Shown: positions 10,230 to 24,875 of the stretch, piece by piece | Layout of the letters: each line of letters starts with the position of its first letter | How positions within the stretch are numbered: the first letter of the stretch is position 1 | DNA from: a virus | Length of the DNA: 36,964 nucleotides | IMG/VR virus record: IMGVR_UViG_3300036944_000932 | Strand: one strand, 5' to 3' | The notes under the pieces: model-generated | What the model was told of the DNA's origin: nothing | Database searches by the model: none | Seen by the model: the letters and a program-made list of their open reading frames with translations, nothing else | Translations under genes and position numbers: made by a program

Positions 10230-10278
10230 TGGTGCCGGCACCAGGAGTCGAACCCGGGACCTACTGATTACAAGTCAG
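10230..10278 (-). other. attP core: 3' 49 nt of a tRNA-Thr(UGU) gene (anticodon arm to CCA), not a complete tRNA
   Basis: The reverse complement reads ctgaCTTGTAAtcagtaggtcccgggttcgactcctggtgccggcacca. This gives anticodon loop CUUGUAA, a T-arm, the acceptor 3' strand and CCA. It closely parallels E. coli thrU from memory. No D-arm or 5' acceptor strand follows. Confidence 0.8.
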
Positions 10279-10462
10279 CCCCCTTAGTCAGTATCGGCAT
10301 AGCGTGCAGAGCTTCTTTTGTACGTTAGTTATATGGGTTTCGCCCTTGTTTTGCTGGTAACGCCGCCATTGATGTACGCGGAAAAGACTGGGGTTCTGTC
10401 CAGCATTCTCTACCTCCTGACTGTGGATAAAGCTGTGGGCAGCTTTTGGTTTAATCAGTTGC

Positions 10463-11611
10463 TCAATCACCCGACGGGTTAACGGTTGGCACGCTGAGGT
10501 CGTACACATCCATCATTGATTCGTCCTTGTGCCCGGACGCTTGTTGCTTGTCTGCGCGGGTTCCCACCGTGTCGGTGATGCCCTTGCGCTTGAAGTCGTG
10601 CATACCGAAGCGCTGCTCCTCGGTGAGGATTCCTTTGTCGATCGCCTGGACGATCAGCCGCTGGAAGGCAGTGTCGAGCCCGGACTTCGACAACTGCATG
10701 CCGGTGGCTGAGATGATCAGGAAGCGCTGGTCTGCGCGGATCGGGACGGGGACACGCTTGCGCTCCCAGGTTTCCGATCTGACGGCCTTGGCTGCATCCC
10801 AGGCGGCGCGCAGGCGAGTAGACCAGCGGACGATGTTGTCCCGGCTTCCCTTGCGGCGGTTTGTGAGGACGCCTTCGGTGAGCTCGTTCTCGTCGGTGAG
10901 GGTGATCGTCTCGATACCGCGTAGGCGGCAGAGGTATCCGATTTCCATCACGTACCACAGGTAAGGGGAGCAGGCCCCGGGCTGGCCGCTCTTGAGCTGG
11001 CCTTGCTGCTGCGCGAACCTGATGAGATTGACCATCACCGTGTCGTCGGGCAGCCTCCGCTGCTTGCGCTCTTTGGGCGACTCGATGCCTTTGGCGGGGT
11101 TGTCCTTCACGAACCCACGGTTGCGACCCCATTGCATCACGCGGCGCAGGTAGCGCAGGGCGTGCGCGGCCTTCGATGGCTTTCCCTCCTGAGCGATCTT
11201 GTCGATGATCCTCTGGATCAGTGCTGGCGTGAACTTGAGCACCGCCAGCTCGCCCAGCGGCTTGCCTAATTTTGTCGGGAACGCCAGAAGTACGTCGCGG
11301 GAGTAGACGTAGTCGTCGTGAGTTTTCGGGCTGAGCACCTTGTACTGGTCGCTCTTGTGGAATTCGTCGCATAGATACTGGAGGCTGTCGCGGTCTACGC
11401 CGTTGCGTTCCTCGATGAGGCGGTGAAGCTCTGACAGCGTCACGTTACCCGCACACAGGTTTTGCCGCTGGCGCCTGCCGGCTTCATTGAAATAGAGGAT
11501 GTACCAGCACCCCGCCCCGCGGTGGTCGAAATACACCGACCGTGGCAGGGCCGCCTGGTCAATGTGCCCAGGTATGTTCGGGTTGTGCTGGCGCTTCCTT
11601 CCTCGCTTCAT
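10463..11611 (-). CDS. int: Tyrosine integrase with N-terminal arm-binding domain
   Basis: 382 aa. Motifs CRLRGIE, HDFKRKG and GHKDESMMDVY (R..H..R..H/Y). It lies adjacent to the tRNA-derived attP. Confidence 0.9.
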   Translation of the reverse strand: MKRGRKRQHNPNIPGHIDQAALPRSVYFDHRGAGCWYILYFNEAGRRQRQNLCAGNVTLSELHRLIEERNGVDRDSLQYLCDEFHKSDQYKVLSPKTHDDYVYSRDVLLAFPTKLGKPLGELAVLKFTPALIQRIIDKIAQEGKPSKAAHALRYLRRVMQWGRNRGFVKDNPAKGIESPKERKQRRLPDDTVMVNLIRFAQQQGQLKSGQPGACSPYLWYVMEIGYLCRLRGIETITLTDENELTEGVLTNRRKGSRDNIVRWSTRLRAAWDAAKAVRSETWERKRVPVPIRADQRFLIISATGMQLSKSGLDTAFQRLIVQAIDKGILTEEQRFGMHDFKRKGITDTVGTRADKQQASGHKDESMMDVYDLSVPTVNPSGD

Positions 11612-11814
11612 ACAATGTCCGCGTCATACTTTTCTTGATCGATTGGCTTGAGGCCGCCCGCCTGGTTGACCAGGTCGACGGTGGTCCAAGGCCCCTTTCT
11701 CCCGAGGAATATTCGTATTCCTTCCCCGCGCAGCGCCTTCTCCACGTCAGCACGCCGCGTATAGCCGGTGATCCGCTGCAATTCCTCAAACTCTATGACT
11801 CTAGCCGCGCTCAT
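11608..11814 (-). CDS. xis: Putative excisionase / recombination directionality factor (DUF4224-like)
   Basis: 68 aa. Its stop overlaps the int start. The pattern FEELQRITGYTRRADVEKALRGEGIRIF..RKGPWTT fits DUF4224 proteins found next to integrases. Confidence 0.65.
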   Translation of the reverse strand: MSAARVIEFEELQRITGYTRRADVEKALRGEGIRIFLGRKGPWTTVDLVNQAGGLKPIDQEKYDADIV

Positions 11815-12077
11815 GTCTGCCCGCCTTCGTGTCGCGACACGTTTTCGTTAACCGTGGATTGTGTCGCGACCGTCACGTACAGCCCGCCGCGCTCGATGCA
11901 AAATGCATCCTCCATGCGCACCACCACTTTCAGCCTGGGCTGACACATACCCGCCTCGTACTTGCAGATCATGCTCGCAGTGACACCGAGGTTGTCAGCA
12001 AGGTCTCGCTGGGTGGTGCCGGCCCGAGCCCGAAGTAGTGCCAGCTTCTCACCGTCGAAAATTGGCTTGCTGTTCAT
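11811..12077 (-). CDS. XRE-family HTH protein
   Basis: LALLRARAGTTQRDLADNLGVTASMICKYEAG is a canonical HTH_3 motif. The gene overlaps the xis start. Confidence 0.75.
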   Translation of the reverse strand: MNSKPIFDGEKLALLRARAGTTQRDLADNLGVTASMICKYEAGMCQPRLKVVVRMEDAFCIERGGLYVTVATQSTVNENVSRHEGGQT

Positions 12078-12079
12078 GG

Positions 12080-12322
12080 TCAGCTCCTGTTCACCGGCGG
12101 CAAGGCTGGTTTCGACTCAATGAAGCTGCTGGCGCTGTTCTCGCCGCCGATGTGGCGGTAGTAGTCGATCTCTACCTTGGCGCTCTCGATCAGCACGCGA
12201 CTGATGTCGGAAACGGAGGTGGCGCGCTGTACTTCCTTTGCCAAGTTCTCGTCAGTGGCTTCGCGTACCGCTTCAAGCTGTGCAAAAAGATGGTCGCGCA
12301 GATCGGTAAGTTTGTTTTTCAT
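12080..12322 (-). CDS. Hypothetical 80-aa protein (predicted helical, acidic)
   Basis: ATG 12322 overlaps the upstream stop (ATGA). Composition is coding-like. Confidence 0.55.
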   Translation of the reverse strand: MKNKLTDLRDHLFAQLEAVREATDENLAKEVQRATSVSDISRVLIESAKVEIDYYRHIGGENSASSFIESKPALPPVNRS

Positions 12323-12843
12323 GACTTCTTATCCCGTATTGCTCTCTTGAGGTCCTGCTGGGCCAGGATCACGTCCTGTAACTCAGCGGGATATTTGCGC
12401 ACTTGATTCCGCCTGCAATGCTCGTCCTTGGTCACCAGTTTGAGGTTGGCCAAGTCTGTGTTCCTCATATTTCCGTCCTCTGCGACAAGTACACAGTCGT
12501 CAGGAACAGGGCCGTTAGCCTGCTCCCAGACCCAGCGATGCTCGAGCACCCACTTGCCATTTGGCAGCTTCACCCGGATGTAACGCCCGTCATCCCGTCG
12601 CTCTCCCGGCTCAACCCAGTTGTGGCTTGATGGGCCGAGTGGATATGGCCTGAATCGGGTGGCGCCCGATACTGACTGGTCGCGCCTCAGCCCAAGGTTG
12701 GCGGCCTTGTTCTTGATCTGGCCGGCCGTCTTGCCTATCTTCGTTTCCAGTTCGGGCATTGGTGTCAGCGGGTAAAGCTCCGTCAGCATTGCGACTTCTT
12801 GCTCTGTCCACCTCCGCCCAATCCCATTCTCACGCACGACCAT
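12319..12843 (-). CDS. HNH_3-like endonuclease-fold protein with N-terminal Myb/SANT-like domain
   Basis: VLEHRWVWEQANGPVP....AEDGNMRNTDLANLKLVT matches the HNH_3 pattern, except that Glu replaces the His before DGN. The N-terminus RWTEQEVAMLTELY...IKNKAANLGL is SANT-like. Confidence 0.7.
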   Translation of the reverse strand: MVVRENGIGRRWTEQEVAMLTELYPLTPMPELETKIGKTAGQIKNKAANLGLRRDQSVSGATRFRPYPLGPSSHNWVEPGERRDDGRYIRVKLPNGKWVLEHRWVWEQANGPVPDDCVLVAEDGNMRNTDLANLKLVTKDEHCRRNQVRKYPAELQDVILAQQDLKRAIRDKKS

Positions 12844-12997
12844 GGCCCTGTTGAAAATGGTCAGCCAGCACCCGGCGCGCGTCGATACCGCACGAAGCCG
12901 ACATAGCGTAGATCTGGCCGAACGTGGTTTCCCGGCGCTGCAGGGCGTTGAACAGCTCGATCAGGCGCTGGCCCTTGGTTCCGTTGCGGCGGTTCAT
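12830..12997 (-). CDS. Unlisted 55-aa ORF (below the track cutoff), possible small winged-helix/DNA-binding protein
   Basis: Hand translation gives MNRRNGTKGQRLIELFNALQRRETTFGQIYAMSASCGIDARRVLADHFQQGHGRA*. Its ATG overlaps the upstream stop (ATGA at 12994-12997) and its end overlaps the HNH start. Third codon positions are GC-rich. Confidence 0.45.
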   Translation of the reverse strand: MNRRNGTKGQRLIELFNALQRRETTFGQIYAMSASCGIDARRVLADHFQQGHGRA

Positions 12998-13263
12998 AGC
13001 TGTAACCCGTTTCCCTGTGGGAGCGGGGTGGCCTGCTGCAGCCCATTTTCAAGCACTGAGCTGGCCGGAGAGGCCCGTCCCGCTTCGTGCGCCGGGGCGG
13101 CGGTCTGCGGGAGCGAACTGTCCGGCAAGCAACTGATGCCGGTGTTGTTCACGATCCAGCAGGTGACGCCCCGCACGCTGTCGTGCTGGACGCTGATCAA
13201 CTGGTCGCCGGCGGCAGCCTGACCGGCGATCAGCAGCAGGATGGCGATGATCATTGCTCGCAT
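12994..13263 (-). CDS. Small secreted protein (signal peptide, 2 Cys)
   Basis: A GAGGAG RBS lies 8 nt upstream of ATG 13263. [19 protein letters not shown] is a signal peptide. Confidence 0.6.
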   Translation of the reverse strand: MRAMIIAILLLIAGQAAAGDQLISVQHDSVRGVTCWIVNNTGISCLPDSSLPQTAAPAHEAGRASPASSVLENGLQQATPLPQGNGLQL

Positions 13264-13664
13264 GGTTGCAGCTCCTCGGAAAACTCGTCGACGATGGGCC
13301 AGTCGAGCGCAGCAGCGTCAATCAGCCTGTCCAGGTCATGGCCGCCAACCGGGTCTCCCATGCCTATGCGCACTATCGGTACGTTGGCCGATCCAGTGCC
13401 CAGAGCCCCGTCACGCAACCAGCGGTACCGGCTCGCCTCGGCGGCCATCTGAATGTGGCCATCGATGCAGAACTCTTCCGAGTCCAAACTCGGTGTCACA
13501 ACGTCACGATCACTCGCGCCGGCGATCACAGCCAGGCCCCGTCCAATGGAAACGTGGGCGCCGAGCTGGACGAAGGGCGCGATCTGCTCCAGCGTCTGCC
13601 CGTCCGCAGGGCGCAGTACTATGCTGATCCGGTCGATCACCGGACGGAGAGTTTTGCTATGCAT
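13251..13664 (-). CDS. Hypothetical 137-aa protein translationally coupled to the CsrA homologue (contains an RYRWLRD motif)
   Basis: An AAGGAG RBS lies 7 nt upstream of ATG 13664, which overlaps the CsrA stop (ATGCATAG). The track N-terminal extension to 13817 lies inside the csrA-like gene. Confidence 0.65.
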
Positions 13665-13956
13665 TTGCAGGCTCCTTGGTGCCGCCATTTGCTTTGGATG
13701 CTTGCTCCTGAGCCAGAAGCTCGCGCCATTCAGCTTCGGTGCGATTCGCGAATAGAGGTTCTTCCGCTGCAGCGTTGACTGCAGGTTTCGGGATCTCACC
13801 AGCCTTGCGGATGGCAATCTCTTCGCGATCTACCGGCACGCCTTTTGGCGCATCGATGCCAAGGCGTACCTGCTGGCCTTTAACGCCCAGGACCGTGACT
13901 GTGATGTCGTTGCCAATGCGGATTACTTCGCCTGGCTTTCGAGTGAGGATCAACAT
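13657..13956 (-). CDS. csrA: CsrA/RsmA-family RNA-binding protein with about 40-aa C-terminal extension
   Basis: [47 protein letters not shown] aligns with E. coli Csr[48 protein letters not shown]. An AAGGAG RBS lies 7 nt upstream of ATG 13956. The track start at 13962 is a TTG. Confidence 0.88.
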
Positions 13957-14009
13957 GGTCAAACTCCTTGTTGATGATGGGATGGTGAATCACCACCCCA
14001 TCAGGGTGA

Positions 14010-14837
14010 TTACTTACCGATGCCGATGAATGGAGTTGCGGTTCCGCTGGTCATGTAGACCGGCAGCTTCCCGTCCCACTTCTCGATAGCGTTGAGCTCG
14101 ACGACTCCAGGGTTCTTGCGCAGCGCTTCACCGCGGATGTTCAGCGACTCAGCTTCGCCCTGGGCCTTGAGGATGGCTGCGTCTTTGTCACCCTGGGCTG
14201 CGGCACGAACCTTGGCGGCTTCAGCTTCGGTCTGTCGCAGCTCGTTCTCCCGCTGTTGGGCCTTCTGAGTGGCGGTGATGCTGTTGTTCAACGCCTCCAC
14301 AACCTGGGGCGGCAGCACGATCTCGCCATTCAAGTAGAGCGACTCGACCACGATGCCTTTGCTTTCGAAGTGCTGCTGAACCTGCTGCTCGATGGCCTTC
14401 AGGAACGCCTCTTTGCCTGGCCCGTACACTTCGGACGCCTTGACCTTCGATCCGGCATTGTTGAAGGCATTGCGCACCACCTGTGGCACGTTCACCTGGA
14501 TGATTTCGTCCATCGACTTGCGATAAGTCTGGAACAGCAGCGGGGCAGCACCTGGCTTGGCGCGTAGCGTGATGCCGATCGGCGCGCTGATCGTCATGCC
14601 GTCACGATCCTGGAACTTGACCTGCTGCAGATTGAAGTTCTGGGCGAAAGTCGGGAACAGGAATAACTCCTCGTTCGGCGTCAGCCACTTGTAGCCGACC
14701 GTGGCCTCGGTGGGAGCCACCCCTTTGTCGCTACCCATAAGGTTCACGATTACGCCCGTGTAGCCGGCGGGCACCTTCGAGCACCCCGCCGTGATGGCAA
14801 GAAGGCACAGCAATGCAACAGCGGCAATCCGCTTCAT
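14010..14837 (-). CDS. SPFH/Band-7 (prohibitin/HflC-like) lipoprotein
   Basis: Lipobox LAITAGC. An SPFH-like core (PAGYTGVIVN..., ...VVESLYLNGEIVLPPQVVEA) is followed by an Ala/Glu-rich coiled coil. A GAGGA RBS precedes the ATG, which overlaps the upstream stop. Confidence 0.8.
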   Translation of the reverse strand: MKRIAAVALLCLLAITAGCSKVPAGYTGVIVNLMGSDKGVAPTEATVGYKWLTPNEELFLFPTFAQNFNLQQVKFQDRDGMTISAPIGITLRAKPGAAPLLFQTYRKSMDEIIQVNVPQVVRNAFNNAGSKVKASEVYGPGKEAFLKAIEQQVQQHFESKGIVVESLYLNGEIVLPPQVVEALNNSITATQKAQQRENELRQTEAEAAKVRAAAQGDKDAAILKAQGEAESLNIRGEALRKNPGVVELNAIEKWDGKLPVYMTSGTATPFIGIGK

Positions 14838-15082
14838 AGATTTTCCTCTTTGGTATTAGCCGCTAACTCACGGCGATTTGCGAATAGGTGGGCGGCGAGG
14901 CAGATCGACGCAATCAGCCAAAGCGCGATCAAACCGAAGCCGAGGAAGACCATCACGTCGGATTCAGCACTGATCAGCGCAGGGCAGATGCCGCGCAGTA
15001 GAACGAATGAGAGAGCCAGGTAGAACGTTGCTGAAAGCAGCCTCAACAAAAGCAGGCCTGGCTTGATATTTACTTGTGGCAT
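14834..15082 (-). CDS. Small 2-TM membrane protein coupled to the SPFH gene
   Basis: A GGAGA RBS lies 5 nt upstream of ATG 15082. Two hydrophobic spans are present (LLLLRLLSATFYLALSFVLL, VMVFLGFGLIALWLIASICLAA). Its stop overlaps the SPFH ATG (ATGA). Confidence 0.65.
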   Translation of the reverse strand: MPQVNIKPGLLLLRLLSATFYLALSFVLLRGICPALISAESDVMVFLGFGLIALWLIASICLAAHLFANRRELAANTKEENL

Positions 15083-15145
15083 CACTTTCTCCAGGCCGAA
15101 CGAATCCCGGCCGCGTTATTGGCTTTCGTGAAAAATCAGGTTGGG

Positions 15146-15523
15146 TTAAGCGGTTTGAATGGCTTCGATCCGGCGCACTGCAGCGCGGGTTTCGATACGA
15201 CGCTCACCCTGGCGGCAGAGGCGGTTCATGTGATCGTCTGTGATCGCTGCGTGACCGGTGAGGACCGCGCACATCAGCACCACCAAGTGCCGTGCAATTC
15301 CACGACAGAACAGTTCAGTAGGGATCGCCGATCTGCTGGTTACACCGAGCTTGTAAAAGATGCGCTCAATTGATTTTTTGACGGTGCCGGGAGCGCAGCC
15401 AATAACCCGGGCGATTTCCTTGTTAGCAAGACCGGCGCACACGGCAAGGGCAGCGCGCAATTCTTGCTCTGCGAGAATGCCGGTTGTTCCCTGCAGCTTG
15501 CCGAAATTGATAACCGTGCTCAT
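15146..15523 (-). CDS. LuxR/GerE-type HTH protein with a hydrophobic C-terminal half
   Basis: LAEQELRAALAVCAGLANKEIARVIGCAPGTVKKSIERIFYKLGV is a GerE-type HTH, followed by HLVVLMCAVLTGHAAI. It is the first gene of the leftward operon. Confidence 0.75.
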   Translation of the reverse strand: MSTVINFGKLQGTTGILAEQELRAALAVCAGLANKEIARVIGCAPGTVKKSIERIFYKLGVTSRSAIPTELFCRGIARHLVVLMCAVLTGHAAITDDHMNRLCRQGERRIETRAAVRRIEAIQTA

Positions 15524-15551
15524 CTCTTCTATCCGCCTTGTGCGTGTTAAT

Positions 15552-15601
15552 GGATAAAAATATAAGCAGATTTATAGGAGTAGGCAAGCAGTATTTTTAT
15601 G
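15552..15601 (-). promoter_or_regulatory. PL-like leftward early promoter flanked by two operator-like ATAAAAATA motifs
   Basis: On the minus strand: -35 TTGCCT (15587-15582), 17 nt, -10 TATATT (15564-15559). Motif copies lie at 15554-15566 (+) and 15589-15601 (-), overlapping the -10 and abutting the -35. Confidence 0.5.
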
Positions 15602-15641
15602 ATTTTTACCAGTCCACTGTTTTTCCTTAATCAATAGGCGC

Positions 15642-15664
15642 AAAAAAGCCCGGCGAACCGGGCT
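15642..15664 (-). terminator. Rho-independent terminator after cI
   Basis: The minus strand reads agcccgg-ttcg-ccgggct followed by tttttt, 20 nt beyond the cI stop. Confidence 0.75.
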
Positions 15665-15683
15665 CTGCTGACTCGTGCATTGA

Positions 15684-16463
15684 CTAGTAAAAAGAAGCCC
15701 CCCAGAAAACACGCCCCACGATTCGGATTTTGGCCTCGTCCATCTCGTGCGCTGAGTATGTCTCGTCTGGATGCTCCGCAATGTTGTAGCTTCTCATGCG
15801 GATGCCTCCGCCTGGCAGTCGATAGAGCGCTTTAACTCTGATTTGGCCGCCATGATCTATCACGTACATGCGTCCATCGACTACCTGGGTCTCGCGTAGA
15901 TGCGCAACGACGGTGCCGCCGTCCTGCAAAACTGGCGCCATTGAATTACCCGAGATGGCTGCCGCGACAACATGCTCAGGGAGTACGCCTTGCTTCAATA
16001 AAATTTCAGAGTTTAGGTCAAGGTGAACCTTCACGCTGATCTCGACAACCGTTTTCGATGAGTCGCGAGGGTCGTCGAGTTCAATCAAATAGGGTATTTC
16101 GTCGGTAAGCAGAGAGTTTGAAGGTGCATACCTGCTCACGTTCCTCAGCTCTTCTATCCGCTCTCGCAGGGCTAAGTTAAGGGCTGCATCATCGTCATGT
16201 TCGCCACGCAGGATCTCTTCAAGCTCGCTGCTGAAGTAGCTCATAGCATCTTCTGGAGAGTTCATCTCGCCTTCCCCTGAAGCTAGCCAGGCGCTATTCA
16301 CCCCGCATGCCCGGGCTATCTGAACAAGGTAGGAGGATCGTAGCGTCTTACCTGATTCCAGTTGACTAATGGCTGTCTGCGCGATGCCTACGGATTCCGC
16401 AAGCTGAGACTGAGTAAGCCTTGCTTTCTTCCGGGCTAGCTTGATTCGTTCGGATAGATTCAT
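15684..16463 (-). CDS. cI: CI-type repressor (XRE HTH plus S24 LexA-like autopeptidase)
   Basis: The N-terminus RIKLARKKARLTQSQLAESVGIAQTAISQLESG is an HTH. The C-terminus has GNSMAP (Ser) and IRVKAL (Lys). It is divergent from cro. Confidence 0.9.
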   Translation of the reverse strand: MNLSERIKLARKKARLTQSQLAESVGIAQTAISQLESGKTLRSSYLVQIARACGVNSAWLASGEGEMNSPEDAMSYFSSELEEILRGEHDDDAALNLALRERIEELRNVSRYAPSNSLLTDEIPYLIELDDPRDSSKTVVEISVKVHLDLNSEILLKQGVLPEHVVAAAISGNSMAPVLQDGGTVVAHLRETQVVDGRMYVIDHGGQIRVKALYRLPGGGIRMRSYNIAEHPDETYSAHEMDEAKIRIVGRVFWGASFY

Positions 16464-16549
16464 CCGCTGATCCTATAAAAATACTTATGGGGTTGCAAAG
16501 AAGTTTGCTTCTGTGCATTCTATAAAAAGACTTATCAGAGGCCGGCGTC
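16464..16549. promoter_or_regulatory. Divergent cI/cro control region with two 16-bp operator-like direct repeats
   Basis: CTATAAAAATACTTAT (16473-16488) and CTATAAAAAGACTTAT (16520-16535) each carry an ATAA-N6-TTAT dyad. A TTGCAA -35-like hexamer lies at 16493-16498. Confidence 0.6.
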
Positions 16550-16852
16550 GTGGCTAAAAATATCATCGAACTAATAAATTACTTCGGTAACCAGTCCAAG
16601 ACCGGCGAAGCCTTAGGTGTTTCTCAAGCAACGGTTTCTTACTGGCTGTCCGGATCGCAGAAGGTAAGCCCCGAAAAAGCGCTTCTCGCTGAGTCCGCTA
16701 CTCGCGGGGCTATCAGGGCTTCCTCGCTGTGCGACGTGATTGCTCAAGTCGAAGCTCGCCACAAGTTAGGTGAATCTTCCACTGAATTGCCCCGGTCCGC
16801 ACCTAGGCCTGATGGCTCTGTTCATCCATCCAGTGCCAGAGGTGTGCAGTGA
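16550..16852 (+). CDS. cro: Cro-like HTH regulator (YdaS/Cro family) with C-terminal extension
   Basis: GTG start with AGAGG 8 nt upstream. FGNQSKTGEALGVSQATVSYWLSG is an HTH. The gene is divergent from cI. Confidence 0.75.
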   Translation: MAKNIIELINYFGNQSKTGEALGVSQATVSYWLSGSQKVSPEKALLAESATRGAIRASSLCDVIAQVEARHKLGESSTELPRSAPRPDGSVHPSSARGVQ

Positions 16853-17376
16853 ACAACGTCATCCAGCTCGACTTTGAAGGTAGTCCAGTTCGTTTTAATG
16901 CTGACGGCTGGATCAATGCAACCGAGGCCGCTGCGCGCTTCAACAAGGAGCCCGCTCAATGGCTTAGGTTGCCCGATGCAACCCGCTATCTGAAAGGGCT
17001 GGAGCGTACATATGGGAAAATCACATATGTAAAAACCAGCCGTGCTCGCACTGATCGTGGCGGCGGTACCTGGATCCATCCACGGCTGGCGGTGAAGTTC
17101 GCACGCTGGCTATCGGTTGATTTTGAGATCTGGTGCGACGCGCAGATTGATGGATTGCTGCGCGGCACCCAGTCCGCTCTGGATGCTTTCAACCGCGCCT
17201 GCAAAAAGTATGACGACAGCGAAGCCCTCGCCAGTGCGCACGGTCGTGGCTTGAACGCCTGGAAGCGCCAGAAACCTTTGCTAATCGGCGAGGTTGAGCG
17301 CGGGCGCAGCCTTTTGCAGCTGACTCTGGGCCTCAATCAGCCTAATCAATCAATCGATCACCAGGTCTCATCATGA
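16849..17376 (+). CDS. KilA-N domain protein
   Basis: The GTG start overlaps the cro stop. The motif FEGSPVRFNADGWINATEAAARFNK...WLRL...GTWIHPRLAVKFARWLS is the KilA-N signature. Confidence 0.8.
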   Translation: MNNVIQLDFEGSPVRFNADGWINATEAAARFNKEPAQWLRLPDATRYLKGLERTYGKITYVKTSRARTDRGGGTWIHPRLAVKFARWLSVDFEIWCDAQIDGLLRGTQSALDAFNRACKKYDDSEALASAHGRGLNAWKRQKPLLIGEVERGRSLLQLTLGLNQPNQSIDHQVSS

Positions 17377-24218: not shown

Positions 24219-24875
24219 ATGGATAGCGGAGCGGTTACGGCGGTCAAGGCTGCTAATGAAGAGTTGCCTGAACGTAATGTGATCGAACTCAAGTCCATAG
24301 TGAATGTCGAAACTGTTACCCCCCTGATTCAGGCGCTTAACGCGGCAGTTGACGGGGATGTGCTTGAGATTCATATTCGGCACAACGGTGGTGGCGAGGT
24401 GGATTCGCTAATAGCGCTTTTGAGAGCTATTGTGAGCACCAAGGCTCAAGTCGATATCACTATCGGCCGATATGTTATGAGTGCGGCTGCGACGTTGTGG
24501 CTGTGGTTTTGGTTGTGGCCTGTACCGCATGTGAATGCGCTCATGCCCCTGAAACCAGCCGTTTTGATGTATCACCGTCCGAGACAATCGTGCGGTAACA
24601 ACGGCGACTATTACTGTTTCGCCGAGAGCCTCAAAGATGGAGATCCTGTCAAGCAATCGTTACTCGACAAGATCAAGATTTTTGACGAGCTTTTCGACGC
24701 TCTGCTACAACGACTAGGTTGGTCTAGTCTCAGCGATGCGTCACTGGTTCTCGAAGATGTGTCTTACCAGCATCACCTACAGCATTTGAAAGAGGCATAT
24801 TACGGGAATAAAGACTGTGTCTTTCCCGTTTTCCCCGACCAAGGAGCTACACATGAAGACGTTCGCGCTGAGTAA
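24219..24875 (+). CDS. ClpP/SppA-fold serine protease-like protein (stand-alone, outside the head module)
   Basis: By-eye alignment to ClpP: IHIRHNGGGEV, GRYVMSAAA (Ser), LMYHRP (His) and EAYYGNKD (Asp). It has an unusual LWLWFWLWPVP insert. No obvious SD sequence precedes the ATG. Confidence 0.6.
   Translation: MDSGAVTAVKAANEELPERNVIELKSIVNVETVTPLIQALNAAVDGDVLEIHIRHNGGGEVDSLIALLRAIVSTKAQVDITIGRYVMSAAATLWLWFWLWPVPHVNALMPLKPAVLMYHRPRQSCGNNGDYYCFAESLKDGDPVKQSLLDKIKIFDELFDALLQRLGWSSLSDASLVLEDVSYQHHLQHLKEAYYGNKDCVFPVFPDQGATHEDVRAE

Follow-up and report, generated by a model that had tools for sequence, protein, structure and literature searches.

The viral DNA stretch IMGVR_UViG_3300036944_000932 from IMG/VR (36,964 nucleotides (nt), analysed at its full length and called the window in the following) belongs to a lambdoid Pseudomonas prophage and carries three minus-strand genes of interest at positions 14,010 to 15,523. 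We report that two of them, coding for a membrane protein of 82 amino acids (aa) with two transmembrane (TM) segments and for an SPFH/Band-7 lipoprotein of 275 aa, form a conserved pair which by homology is the gp19/gp20 module of coliphage N4 (phrog_1130 + phrog_200). The third, a LuxR/GerE-type gene with a helix-turn-helix (HTH), precedes the pair and, judged by its distribution among phages, is a unit of its own. The explanation we consider best for the whole, with a probability of roughly 45%, is that two units head a repressor-controlled leftward early operon, and that the pair exerts an early envelope function through an SPFH assembly at the inner membrane. The three genes are:

15523..15146, minus strand: LuxR/GerE-type HTH protein, 125 aa (Pfam GerE PF00196; phrog_3282, E 1.3e-34)
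15082..14834, minus strand: two-TM hairpin protein, 82 aa, N4 gp19-type (phrog_11742, E 6e-20; phrog_1130, E 1.3e-5)
14837..14010, minus strand: SPFH/Band-7 lipoprotein, 275 aa, N4 gp20-type (Pfam Band_7; phrog_200)

An earlier reading of this DNA (the original prediction) had already placed three genes here, and their strong family matches confirm that they are not chance open reading frames (ORFs).

Relation to N4 gp19/gp20

N4 gp20 and the SPFH protein of the window share 37% identity over 271 aa (BLASTP, E 1e-60), and N4 gp19 aligns to the profile of the partner family (A2, with the window protein as its first row) with an hhalign probability of 96.7% and an E-value of 4.4e-10. Genes 19 and 20 overlap in N4, and the record of Shigella virus Moo19 names its own pair as similar to N4 gp19 and gp20. 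Common to the N4 pair, the Moo19 pair and the window are a small gene upstream that overlaps the SPFH gene, a lipobox, and a place in the early-side region of the genome. N4 differs in being strictly lytic with Tyr at position +2 of the lipobox, whereas the window represents a temperate phage with a cI-type operator and Ser at +2. A function is recorded neither for the N4 pair nor for the window pair. Based on these comparisons the pair belongs to an already known, functionally uncharacterised phage family with N4 gp19/gp20 as its prototype.

The gene just upstream of the pair in N4 (gp18; L170, 1169-1483) and in Moo19 (gp29; L164, 34-348) is annotated as 'superinfection exclusion, similar to P22 gp17'. 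This adjacency to a putative exclusion gene, taken from annotation alone, is suggestive.

The two-TM partner and its pairing with SPFH

The stop codon TGA of the two-TM gene overlaps the start of the SPFH gene as ATGA, as had been seen originally. The ATG at 15082 is the better start of the two-TM gene because GGAG is found 6 nt upstream of it; the ORF list begins one codon earlier, at GTG. Counted from the stop codon of the LuxR-like gene the distance is 63 nt to this ATG and 60 nt to the GTG, the latter agreeing with the 60-bp gap described before. The protein has two hydrophobic segments joined by the loop CPALISAESD, which presumably lies on the periplasmic side.

For 80 IMG/VR loci and for GenBank phages we inspected the ORF just upstream of the SPFH gene, and found almost always a protein of 55-90 aa with two hydrophobic helices. 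The loop motif P-x-L-[ILV]-S-x-x-[SD]-[DT] is conserved in these partners, and in many loci their stop codon overlaps the SPFH start. phrog_1130 matches 20 out of 22 diverse partners. For the calculation of pairing, a hit of the partner hidden Markov model adjacent to the SPFH gene was counted over non-redundant loci, which were binned by SPFH identity to the window protein, with two rounds of loci combined. The partner precedes SPFH directly in 15 out of 18 loci at an identity of at least 60%, in 29 out of 36 loci at 40-60% and in 8 out of 11 loci at 35-40%, compared to an adjacent partner in 1 out of 39 loci below 35%. The pair is thereby found adjacent across many phage lineages: carriers include Pseudomonas prophages and lytic phages, an Stx2 phage, a P1-like phage, a Klebsiella prophage, an rV5-like phage, N4-like phages and Burkholderia phage phi644-2. 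In GenBank the partner ORF is unannotated in the Stx2d phage Stx2_112808 (L086, 2259-2447) and in the P1-like phage MH445381 (L162, ~460-650), and RefSeq E. coli genomes label it only 'hypothetical protein'.

A small NfeD-like membrane protein had been expected as the partner. The part of this expectation that stands is the dedicated small partner, adjacent across lineages. NfeD itself is listed at E <= 1 for none of the 22 diverse partners (55-86 aa), which possess no soluble part of the size of an OB-fold, and Pfam recovered no family, NfeD and holin included, for the 82-aa protein and these 22 partners. A single-sequence search with the partner among 1.84 billion representatives returned only 18 clusters; as there is also no Pfam family, the partner can be traced by profile and position only.

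The two genes of the pair differ in their evolution. SPFH proteins 96-99% identical to that of the window are combined with partners that are only 30-37% identical (L006, L012, L016, L090-L092), and at these loci the partner genes differ at a synonymous divergence (dS) above 1.2, the SPFH genes at dS 0.5-0.7. The window partner is closest to partners of SPFH proteins that are 77-78% identical. This indicates a fast-evolving partner that is shuffled against SPFH by allele exchange at the gene junction. The ratio of nonsynonymous to synonymous divergence of the SPFH gene is 0.009-0.035 against the relatives at dS 0.5-0.7, which shows strong purifying selection on it.

Some loci deviate from this arrangement. 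One IMG/VR contig (L011, 4732-5010) has the partner gene downstream and not upstream of the SPFH gene. The Bruynoghevirus-like loci L018-L020 show a weak partner match approximately 450 bp upstream, with another gene between. The 'superinfection exclusion protein' beside SPFH in the Kuttervirus PhiSH19 was considered as a partner and rejected: it is a soluble acidic protein, and there is no partner at this locus.

The SPFH lipoprotein

The Band_7 domain (PF01145) covers residues 21-202 of the SPFH protein with an E-value of 3.4e-21 and 76.5 bits against a cutoff of 23.6, and the 'lipoprotein' family phrog_200 matches with an E-value of 2.7e-78. The signal peptide MKRIAAVALLCLLAITAG leads into a lipobox (...LAITAG-C19), so that both the export signal and the lipobox are present in the sequence and lipid modification at Cys19 is predicted. 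The lipobox Cys is kept in most relatives, and several without it retain an uncleaved hydrophobic anchor. A lipoprotein anchor, which had been called unusual, is indeed so in comparison to HflK/C, QmcA and flotillin; within the phage SPFH subfamily it is, as far as the aligned relatives tell, the rule.

The AlphaFold2 (AF2) model (mean predicted local distance difference test, pLDDT, of 81) consists of the SPFH domain and one long helix rich in Ala, Glu and Gln (177-241), followed by a C-terminus with the conserved motif ELNAIEKWDGKLP...PF. A Foldseek search with this model gives full-length alignments with the cage-forming SPFH proteins prohibitin, HflK/C, stomatin, erlin and QmcA (probability 1.00, E 1e-13 to 5e-9) and also with flotillin; over the whole set E is 1e-13 to 1e-8. 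The predicted SPFH fold is thus confirmed, and the lipobox and the Ala/Glu-rich helical tail are present as described.

Relatives of the protein were found by tblastn in 646 out of 50,697 phage records (approximately 1.3%), temperate as well as strictly lytic, and more than 1000 clusters at 90% identity match it at E <= 1e-5. A DNA search with the version of an Stx phage gave matches in 536 out of 5426 complete E. coli genomes (approximately 10%), with a query coverage of at least 80% in 217 of them. These matches include 199 places on plasmids, and their annotation is merely 'SPFH domain-containing protein' or 'hypothetical protein'. The PADLOC models of defence systems gave no match for the two-TM and SPFH proteins or for the CsrA homologue encoded downstream.

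The family resemblance raises the question of a HflK/C mimic, a phage SPFH protein that cages or displaces the host FtsH from the periplasmic side, changes substrate turnover and thereby influences the choice between lysis and lysogeny. The model shares with HflK/HflC of E. coli the SPFH fold, the long helix, a C-terminal cap region and, presumably, the periplasm-facing position on the inner membrane; HflK and HflC are the only SPFH models of NCBIfam to match the protein, the gene is situated in an early operon close to the immunity region, and the idea has been proposed in several papers. The scores are nevertheless only 25 bits for HflK (TIGR01933, cutoff 159.4) and 20.8 bits for HflC (TIGR01932, cutoff 134.4), and among sequence matches to the PDB prohibitin is at least as good as HflC. 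By sequence the protein does not stand closer to HflK/C than to prohibitin. It differs further from HflK/HflC in its anchor, a lipid where those have an N-terminal TM helix, and in being encoded by a single gene instead of two paralogues, its neighbour being the 82-aa hairpin gene and not a second SPFH gene. A CII-like family was looked for in 10 ORFs of the window, including eight from the rightward early region (16.5-21.2 kb), and was not found. Strictly lytic phages account for many of the carriers (N4-like, rV5-like, Otagovirus and relatives of Bruynoghevirus). An effect on FtsH and lysogeny does not account for the pair in N4-like, rV5-like and Otagovirus phages, and has no support from the sequence. 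We therefore do not follow the original prediction in its proposal of FtsH tuning, and regard such a mimic as rather improbable.

Members of this phage family are commonly misannotated as 'serine protease', which is without support, or as 'transposase'. In Burkholderia phage phi644-2 a 'lipoprotein' (L167, 656-1855) consists of the SPFH protein joined in frame to part of an integrase-core (rve) transposase, and this fusion probably seeded the recurrent 'transposase' annotation.

The LuxR-type gene as a separate unit

The GerE domain was found at residues 17-66 (E 8.9e-10; 38.5 bits, cutoff 23.5). Only 16 residues precede the HTH, and Pfam gave no autoinducer-binding or receiver domain N-terminal to it; in PADLOC the protein gave a weak HTH match only. 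The AF2 model (mean pLDDT 77) shows a four-helix HTH, the last helix of which continues unbroken over residues 66-124. The HTH that had been described is confirmed, whereas the hydrophobic C-terminal half is in fact one stretch of about 18 residues (approximately 79-97) followed by a basic tail. Both elements are kept in 48 distinct homologues. Their common architecture starts with a short β-hairpin and the GerE HTH; an 'ISP' hinge leads to the roughly 18 hydrophobic residues, after which come two acidic residues and the basic tail, whose consensus reads RRxGERKIETR, RRxGERRIETR or RxxGERRIETR. In this long form the basic tail is conserved at least as well as the HTH. A short form of 100-106 aa has an acidic tail in place of the hydrophobic stretch and the basic tail. 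Possibly the long form is tethered to the membrane or oligomeric.

Of the 64 phage records with homologues, 63 belong to Pseudomonas phages, and only 10 contain the partner as well. The gene directly follows the repressor gene in F10 and PAN70, and is located elsewhere in the leftward region in MD8 and LESphi3. A conserved second gene after it was not found: its followers in PAN70, F10 and MD8 are mutually unrelated and absent from the window. Because of the 64 records compared to 10 with the partner, the varied contexts and the lack of a conserved follower, we read the LuxR-like protein as an independent early DNA-binding regulator typical of temperate Pseudomonas phages of the F10/PAN70/LES type.

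The three genes had also been treated as one set. In such a three-gene unit the LuxR-like protein would be a regulator tethered to the membrane, and the assembly of the hairpin protein and SPFH would set its activity. The conserved hydrophobic stretch after the HTH agrees with it, the order cI, LuxR, two-TM, SPFH recurs in Pseudomonas prophages, and matches to both the LuxR-like protein and the partner are found in 61 out of 158 loci of SPFH relatives, many of which are near-identical P. aeruginosa prophages. Yet most of the phage records with the LuxR-like gene are without the pair, hundreds of phages carry the pair without the LuxR-like gene, allele combinations are shuffled, and the short form of the regulator has no hydrophobic stretch. 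We consider the single unit very improbable, and sensing of the SPFH assembly by the LuxR-like protein possible but unlikely.

Control of the leftward operon

The region upstream of the three genes contains the following features:

15684..16463, minus strand: cI-like repressor, 259 aa, HTH_3 (E 1.1e-12) and Peptidase_S24 (E 8.6e-17); phrog_4 'transcriptional repressor', E 1.6e-39
15642..15665, minus strand: intrinsic terminator after cI, GAGCCCGG-UUCG-CCGGGCUU followed by a U run, read from the sequence
15559..15587, minus strand: PL-like promoter, TTGCCT-17 nt-TATATT, the sole sigma-70-like site from a scan of 11500-17000
15562..15579, minus strand: operator-like 18-mer TCCTATAAATCTGCTTAT, overlapping the promoter spacer and the -10 element
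16471-16488 and 16518-16535, plus strand: two further operator-like copies between the cI and cro-like genes
16550-16852, plus strand: cro-like gene, divergent from cI (phrog_35)

The terminator hairpin has an RNA folding energy of -21.7 kcal/mol (z -2.4); it was not among the hits of our simple consensus scan for sites. With up to 3 mismatches the 18-mer occurs 3 times in the 37-kb window, compared to 0 expected by chance. A partial copy of 11 nt of its core, ATAAAAATACT (15590-15600, inverted repeat I6), closely precedes the -35 element. The related prophage L012, whose cI is 90% identical, has the operator-like site in the same position. The terminator after cI, the promoter and the operator-like 18-mers shared with the cI-cro region are the reasons to regard this layout as a repressor-controlled PL-type promoter, at which a cI-type repressor would act. 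The LuxR-like, two-TM and SPFH genes are located downstream of it and head the leftward early operon, in accordance with the original assignment as first genes of a PL-like operon. The leftward-operon position of the pair is the same in PAN70 and in the Stx2 phage.

Topology and membrane location

To describe the orientation of the partner, charged residues (Lys and Arg / Asp and Glu) were summed over 22 partners, giving 36/6 in the N-terminal tail, 9/34 in the loop and 78/47 in the C-terminal tail. According to the positive-inside rule this charge distribution places both ends in the cytoplasm and the acidic conserved loop in the periplasm. The partner would thus be a hairpin in the inner membrane.

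In the SPFH homologues of Stx2 and P1-like phages and of Klebsiella (GCDRVEPG), as well as in Burkholderia (CDNV), the residue at +2 of the lipobox is Asp, the established Lol-avoidance signal of Enterobacteria. Because of this Asp, the TM-anchored members and the obligate inner-membrane partner we infer a position of the SPFH protein on the periplasmic face of the inner membrane.

Potential function of the pair

The role of the pair is constrained by its early expression position, by lytic as well as temperate carriers, and by the periplasmic geometry at the inner membrane with a hairpin partner. The early position shows in the cI control described here and in the location of the pair, which is in the leftward early regions for PAN70 and the Stx2 phage and in the early-side part of the genome for N4. 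An early envelope function is favored since the pair is under a cI-controlled promoter in the window and is also found in strictly lytic phages.

In the proposed mechanism the SPFH protein would be exported, lipid-modified at Cys19 and anchored on the periplasmic face of the inner membrane. Via its long helix and conserved C-terminus it could oligomerise into a ring or cage, as prohibitin or HflK/C do. Judging from the structural model, this cage may be in contact with the hairpin partner and cover a membrane patch that contains, or is organised by, it; the ATGA overlap fits a coupled synthesis of both proteins. The pair would then act early on the envelope of the infected or induced cell, and the cage might shield the inner membrane against the entry of a second phage or against membrane damage. 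We prefer such shielding to the setting of lysogeny through FtsH, with low confidence. It is doubtful that the pair is, more specifically, a widespread and hitherto unrecognised periplasm-facing cage of phages which closes the inner membrane to incoming phage DNA or captures a host machine (FtsH, a DNA-entry transporter), a device that would then be common to N4-like, rV5-like, Stx, P1-like and Pseudomonas phages.

Several points weigh against an inner-membrane assembly with an early envelope function. The cage is extrapolated from a monomer model, the C-terminus of which has a low confidence (pLDDT 46-63). There is no partner beside SPFH in Kolesnikvirus, Kuttervirus and Staphylococcus Kayvirus and in many TM-anchored cellular homologues. 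The evidence fits exclusion and other envelope roles alike. The Pseudomonas SPFH proteins have Ser at +2 (CSKV), which under the E. coli rule would direct them to the outer membrane; the sorting rule of Pseudomonas lipoproteins, however, differs from that of E. coli. Contigs from RNA sequencing of P. aeruginosa cultures cover a PAN70-type pair, at depths that cannot separate expression in the lysogen from spontaneous induction. A HflK/C-like protein of a Pasteurella prophage, PM0222, is reported in outer-membrane vesicles (PMC9872710). Phage SPFH proteins have come up again and again in genome papers; published proposals on them either repeat the HflK/C-CII idea or call the role unclear, the latter in papers of 2021 (PMC8540360) and 2026 (PMC13239085), and in the literature searched there is no tested phage-side function for phage SPFH proteins, N4 gp19/gp20 or the LuxR-like early gene.

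The Ser at +2 and the transcripts in P. aeruginosa cultures could also be a hint towards an outer-membrane lipoprotein that acts in the lysogen, either by masking a receptor as Cor and Llp do, or by changing the surface or vesicles as a lysogenic conversion or host-interaction factor. Receptor-blocking phage lipoproteins such as Cor are well known. PM0222 was also reported as a TLR1/2 agonist (PMC9872710). Opposed to this, the promoter is overlapped by repressor-type operators and the scan found no second one, the enteric homologues have Asp at +2 and other members a TM anchor, the obligate partner is an inner-membrane protein, and the pair is carried by lytic phages as well. We give a role in the outer membrane little chance.

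SPFH cages generally enclose and restrain membrane proteins, which is established for HflK/C, prohibitin and stomatin, and the structures of these three match our model. The assembly could also stabilise the energised inner membrane, or restrain a membrane-active phage protein, possibly the partner itself, until programmed lysis. With its small size and hairpin form the partner resembles class II holins and pinholins, and the SPFH gene of Staphylococcus Kayvirus neighbours the endolysin gene and a gene for a holin-like membrane protein; for Kayvirus a link to the secretion of a lytic enzyme has been suggested in the literature. However, the pair occupies early regions in the window, PAN70, N4 and the Stx2 phage, at a great distance from the late and lysis genes, and the partner has no match to a holin family in Pfam. 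Membrane maintenance or lysis timing is therefore unlikely in our opinion, and the early envelope function remains the preferred reading.

The value of these observations is in a well-defined and widespread two-gene module and not in a new kind of system. What is added to the known family is the fixed, fast-evolving two-helix partner, the identity with N4 gp19/gp20, the direct repressor control in the window, and the signals for a periplasmic position at the inner membrane. The identity with N4 gp19/gp20 provides a tractable model for the pair. A defined function would annotate many genes at once, as a related pair is present in approximately 10% of complete E. coli genomes (Stx phages, P1-like plasmids) and SPFH in approximately 1.3% of phage records, and it would give the first virus-encoded bacterial SPFH assembly with a known client.

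Comparison to other SPFH and exclusion systems

In the SPFH-NfeD operons (QmcA-YbbJ, YqiK-YqiJ) an SPFH gene is likewise coupled to a gene for a small membrane protein, and the QmcA-YbbJ structure 8z5g is a Foldseek match to our SPFH model (E 4.6e-9). The window partner differs in having no NfeD domain and only a loop of 12 residues on the SPFH side. QmcA faces the cytoplasm, in contrast to the exported SPFH protein of the window.

Prohibitin (PHB1/PHB2) is the best match in the PDB by sequence and by structure and has a similar length and domain order. It differs in being a eukaryotic mitochondrial hetero-oligomer with a TM anchor, with an identity of 16-18% to the window protein.

The early envelope-acting exclusion proteins T4 Imm and Sp, HK97 gp15, T5 Llp and Cor are small membrane proteins or lipoproteins encoded by early genes or morons. 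Their likeness to the window pair would be in the way of working only: a sequence relation to exclusion proteins was not found by PADLOC or by Pfam on the partners, and none of those named is known to use SPFH.

PM0222 of Pasteurella multocida is, like the window protein, a prophage-borne SPFH protein, and was studied as a trait of the lysogen. It was reported in vesicles and as a factor of host inflammation (PMC9872710), which gives no information on a role for the phage.

Layout and relatives of the window

The remaining features of the window include a leftward block of small genes between the integrase gene and the cI-like repressor gene:

10230-10298: tRNA-Thr; attL regions of Pseudomonas phages give short matches here
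11611..10463: integrase gene
11811-12077, minus strand: 88-aa HTH protein adjoining the integrase gene, possible excisionase or regulator
12080-12322, minus strand: 80-aa protein (phrog_2044)
12319-12843, minus strand: HNH endonuclease
12994-13263, minus strand: 89-aa protein with signal peptide (phrog_9917)
13657..13956, minus strand: CsrA/RsmA homologue, 99 aa from ATG (Pfam CsrA, E 1.5e-22; NCBIfam CsrA, 79.4 bits, cutoff 73)

Rightward beyond cro follow KilA-N and antirepressor genes, genes for replication (an O-like initiator, a DnaC-like loader and a DnaB-like helicase) and the gene of a Q-like antiterminator, after which the terminase and portal genes are located. Known phages match the window DNA in short patches only, and no phage record contains DNA near-identical to the three-gene region. 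The complete window sequence is present in a metagenome run from shale gas; overall the sequence occurs mainly in metagenome runs, and the nearest genomic relatives are Pseudomonas genomes of the fluorescens group.

An ORF of 218 aa (24219-24875, plus strand), flanked by the Q-like antiterminator gene and the late genes, could represent a moron. It is situated in the kilobase with the lowest GC content of the window (0.506), and has no Pfam match and a weak match to an 'ATP-dependent protease' PHROG.

The CsrA homologue is the next gene of the operon, 53 nt downstream of the SPFH gene, and has a C-terminal extension of approximately 45 aa. It would be a phage-borne global RNA-binding regulator within the early operon. 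At least 10 other Pseudomonas prophage loci also have a CsrA gene directly after SPFH, which suggests a frequent downstream neighbour of the two-TM/SPFH pair in Pseudomonas prophages, linked to it by position.

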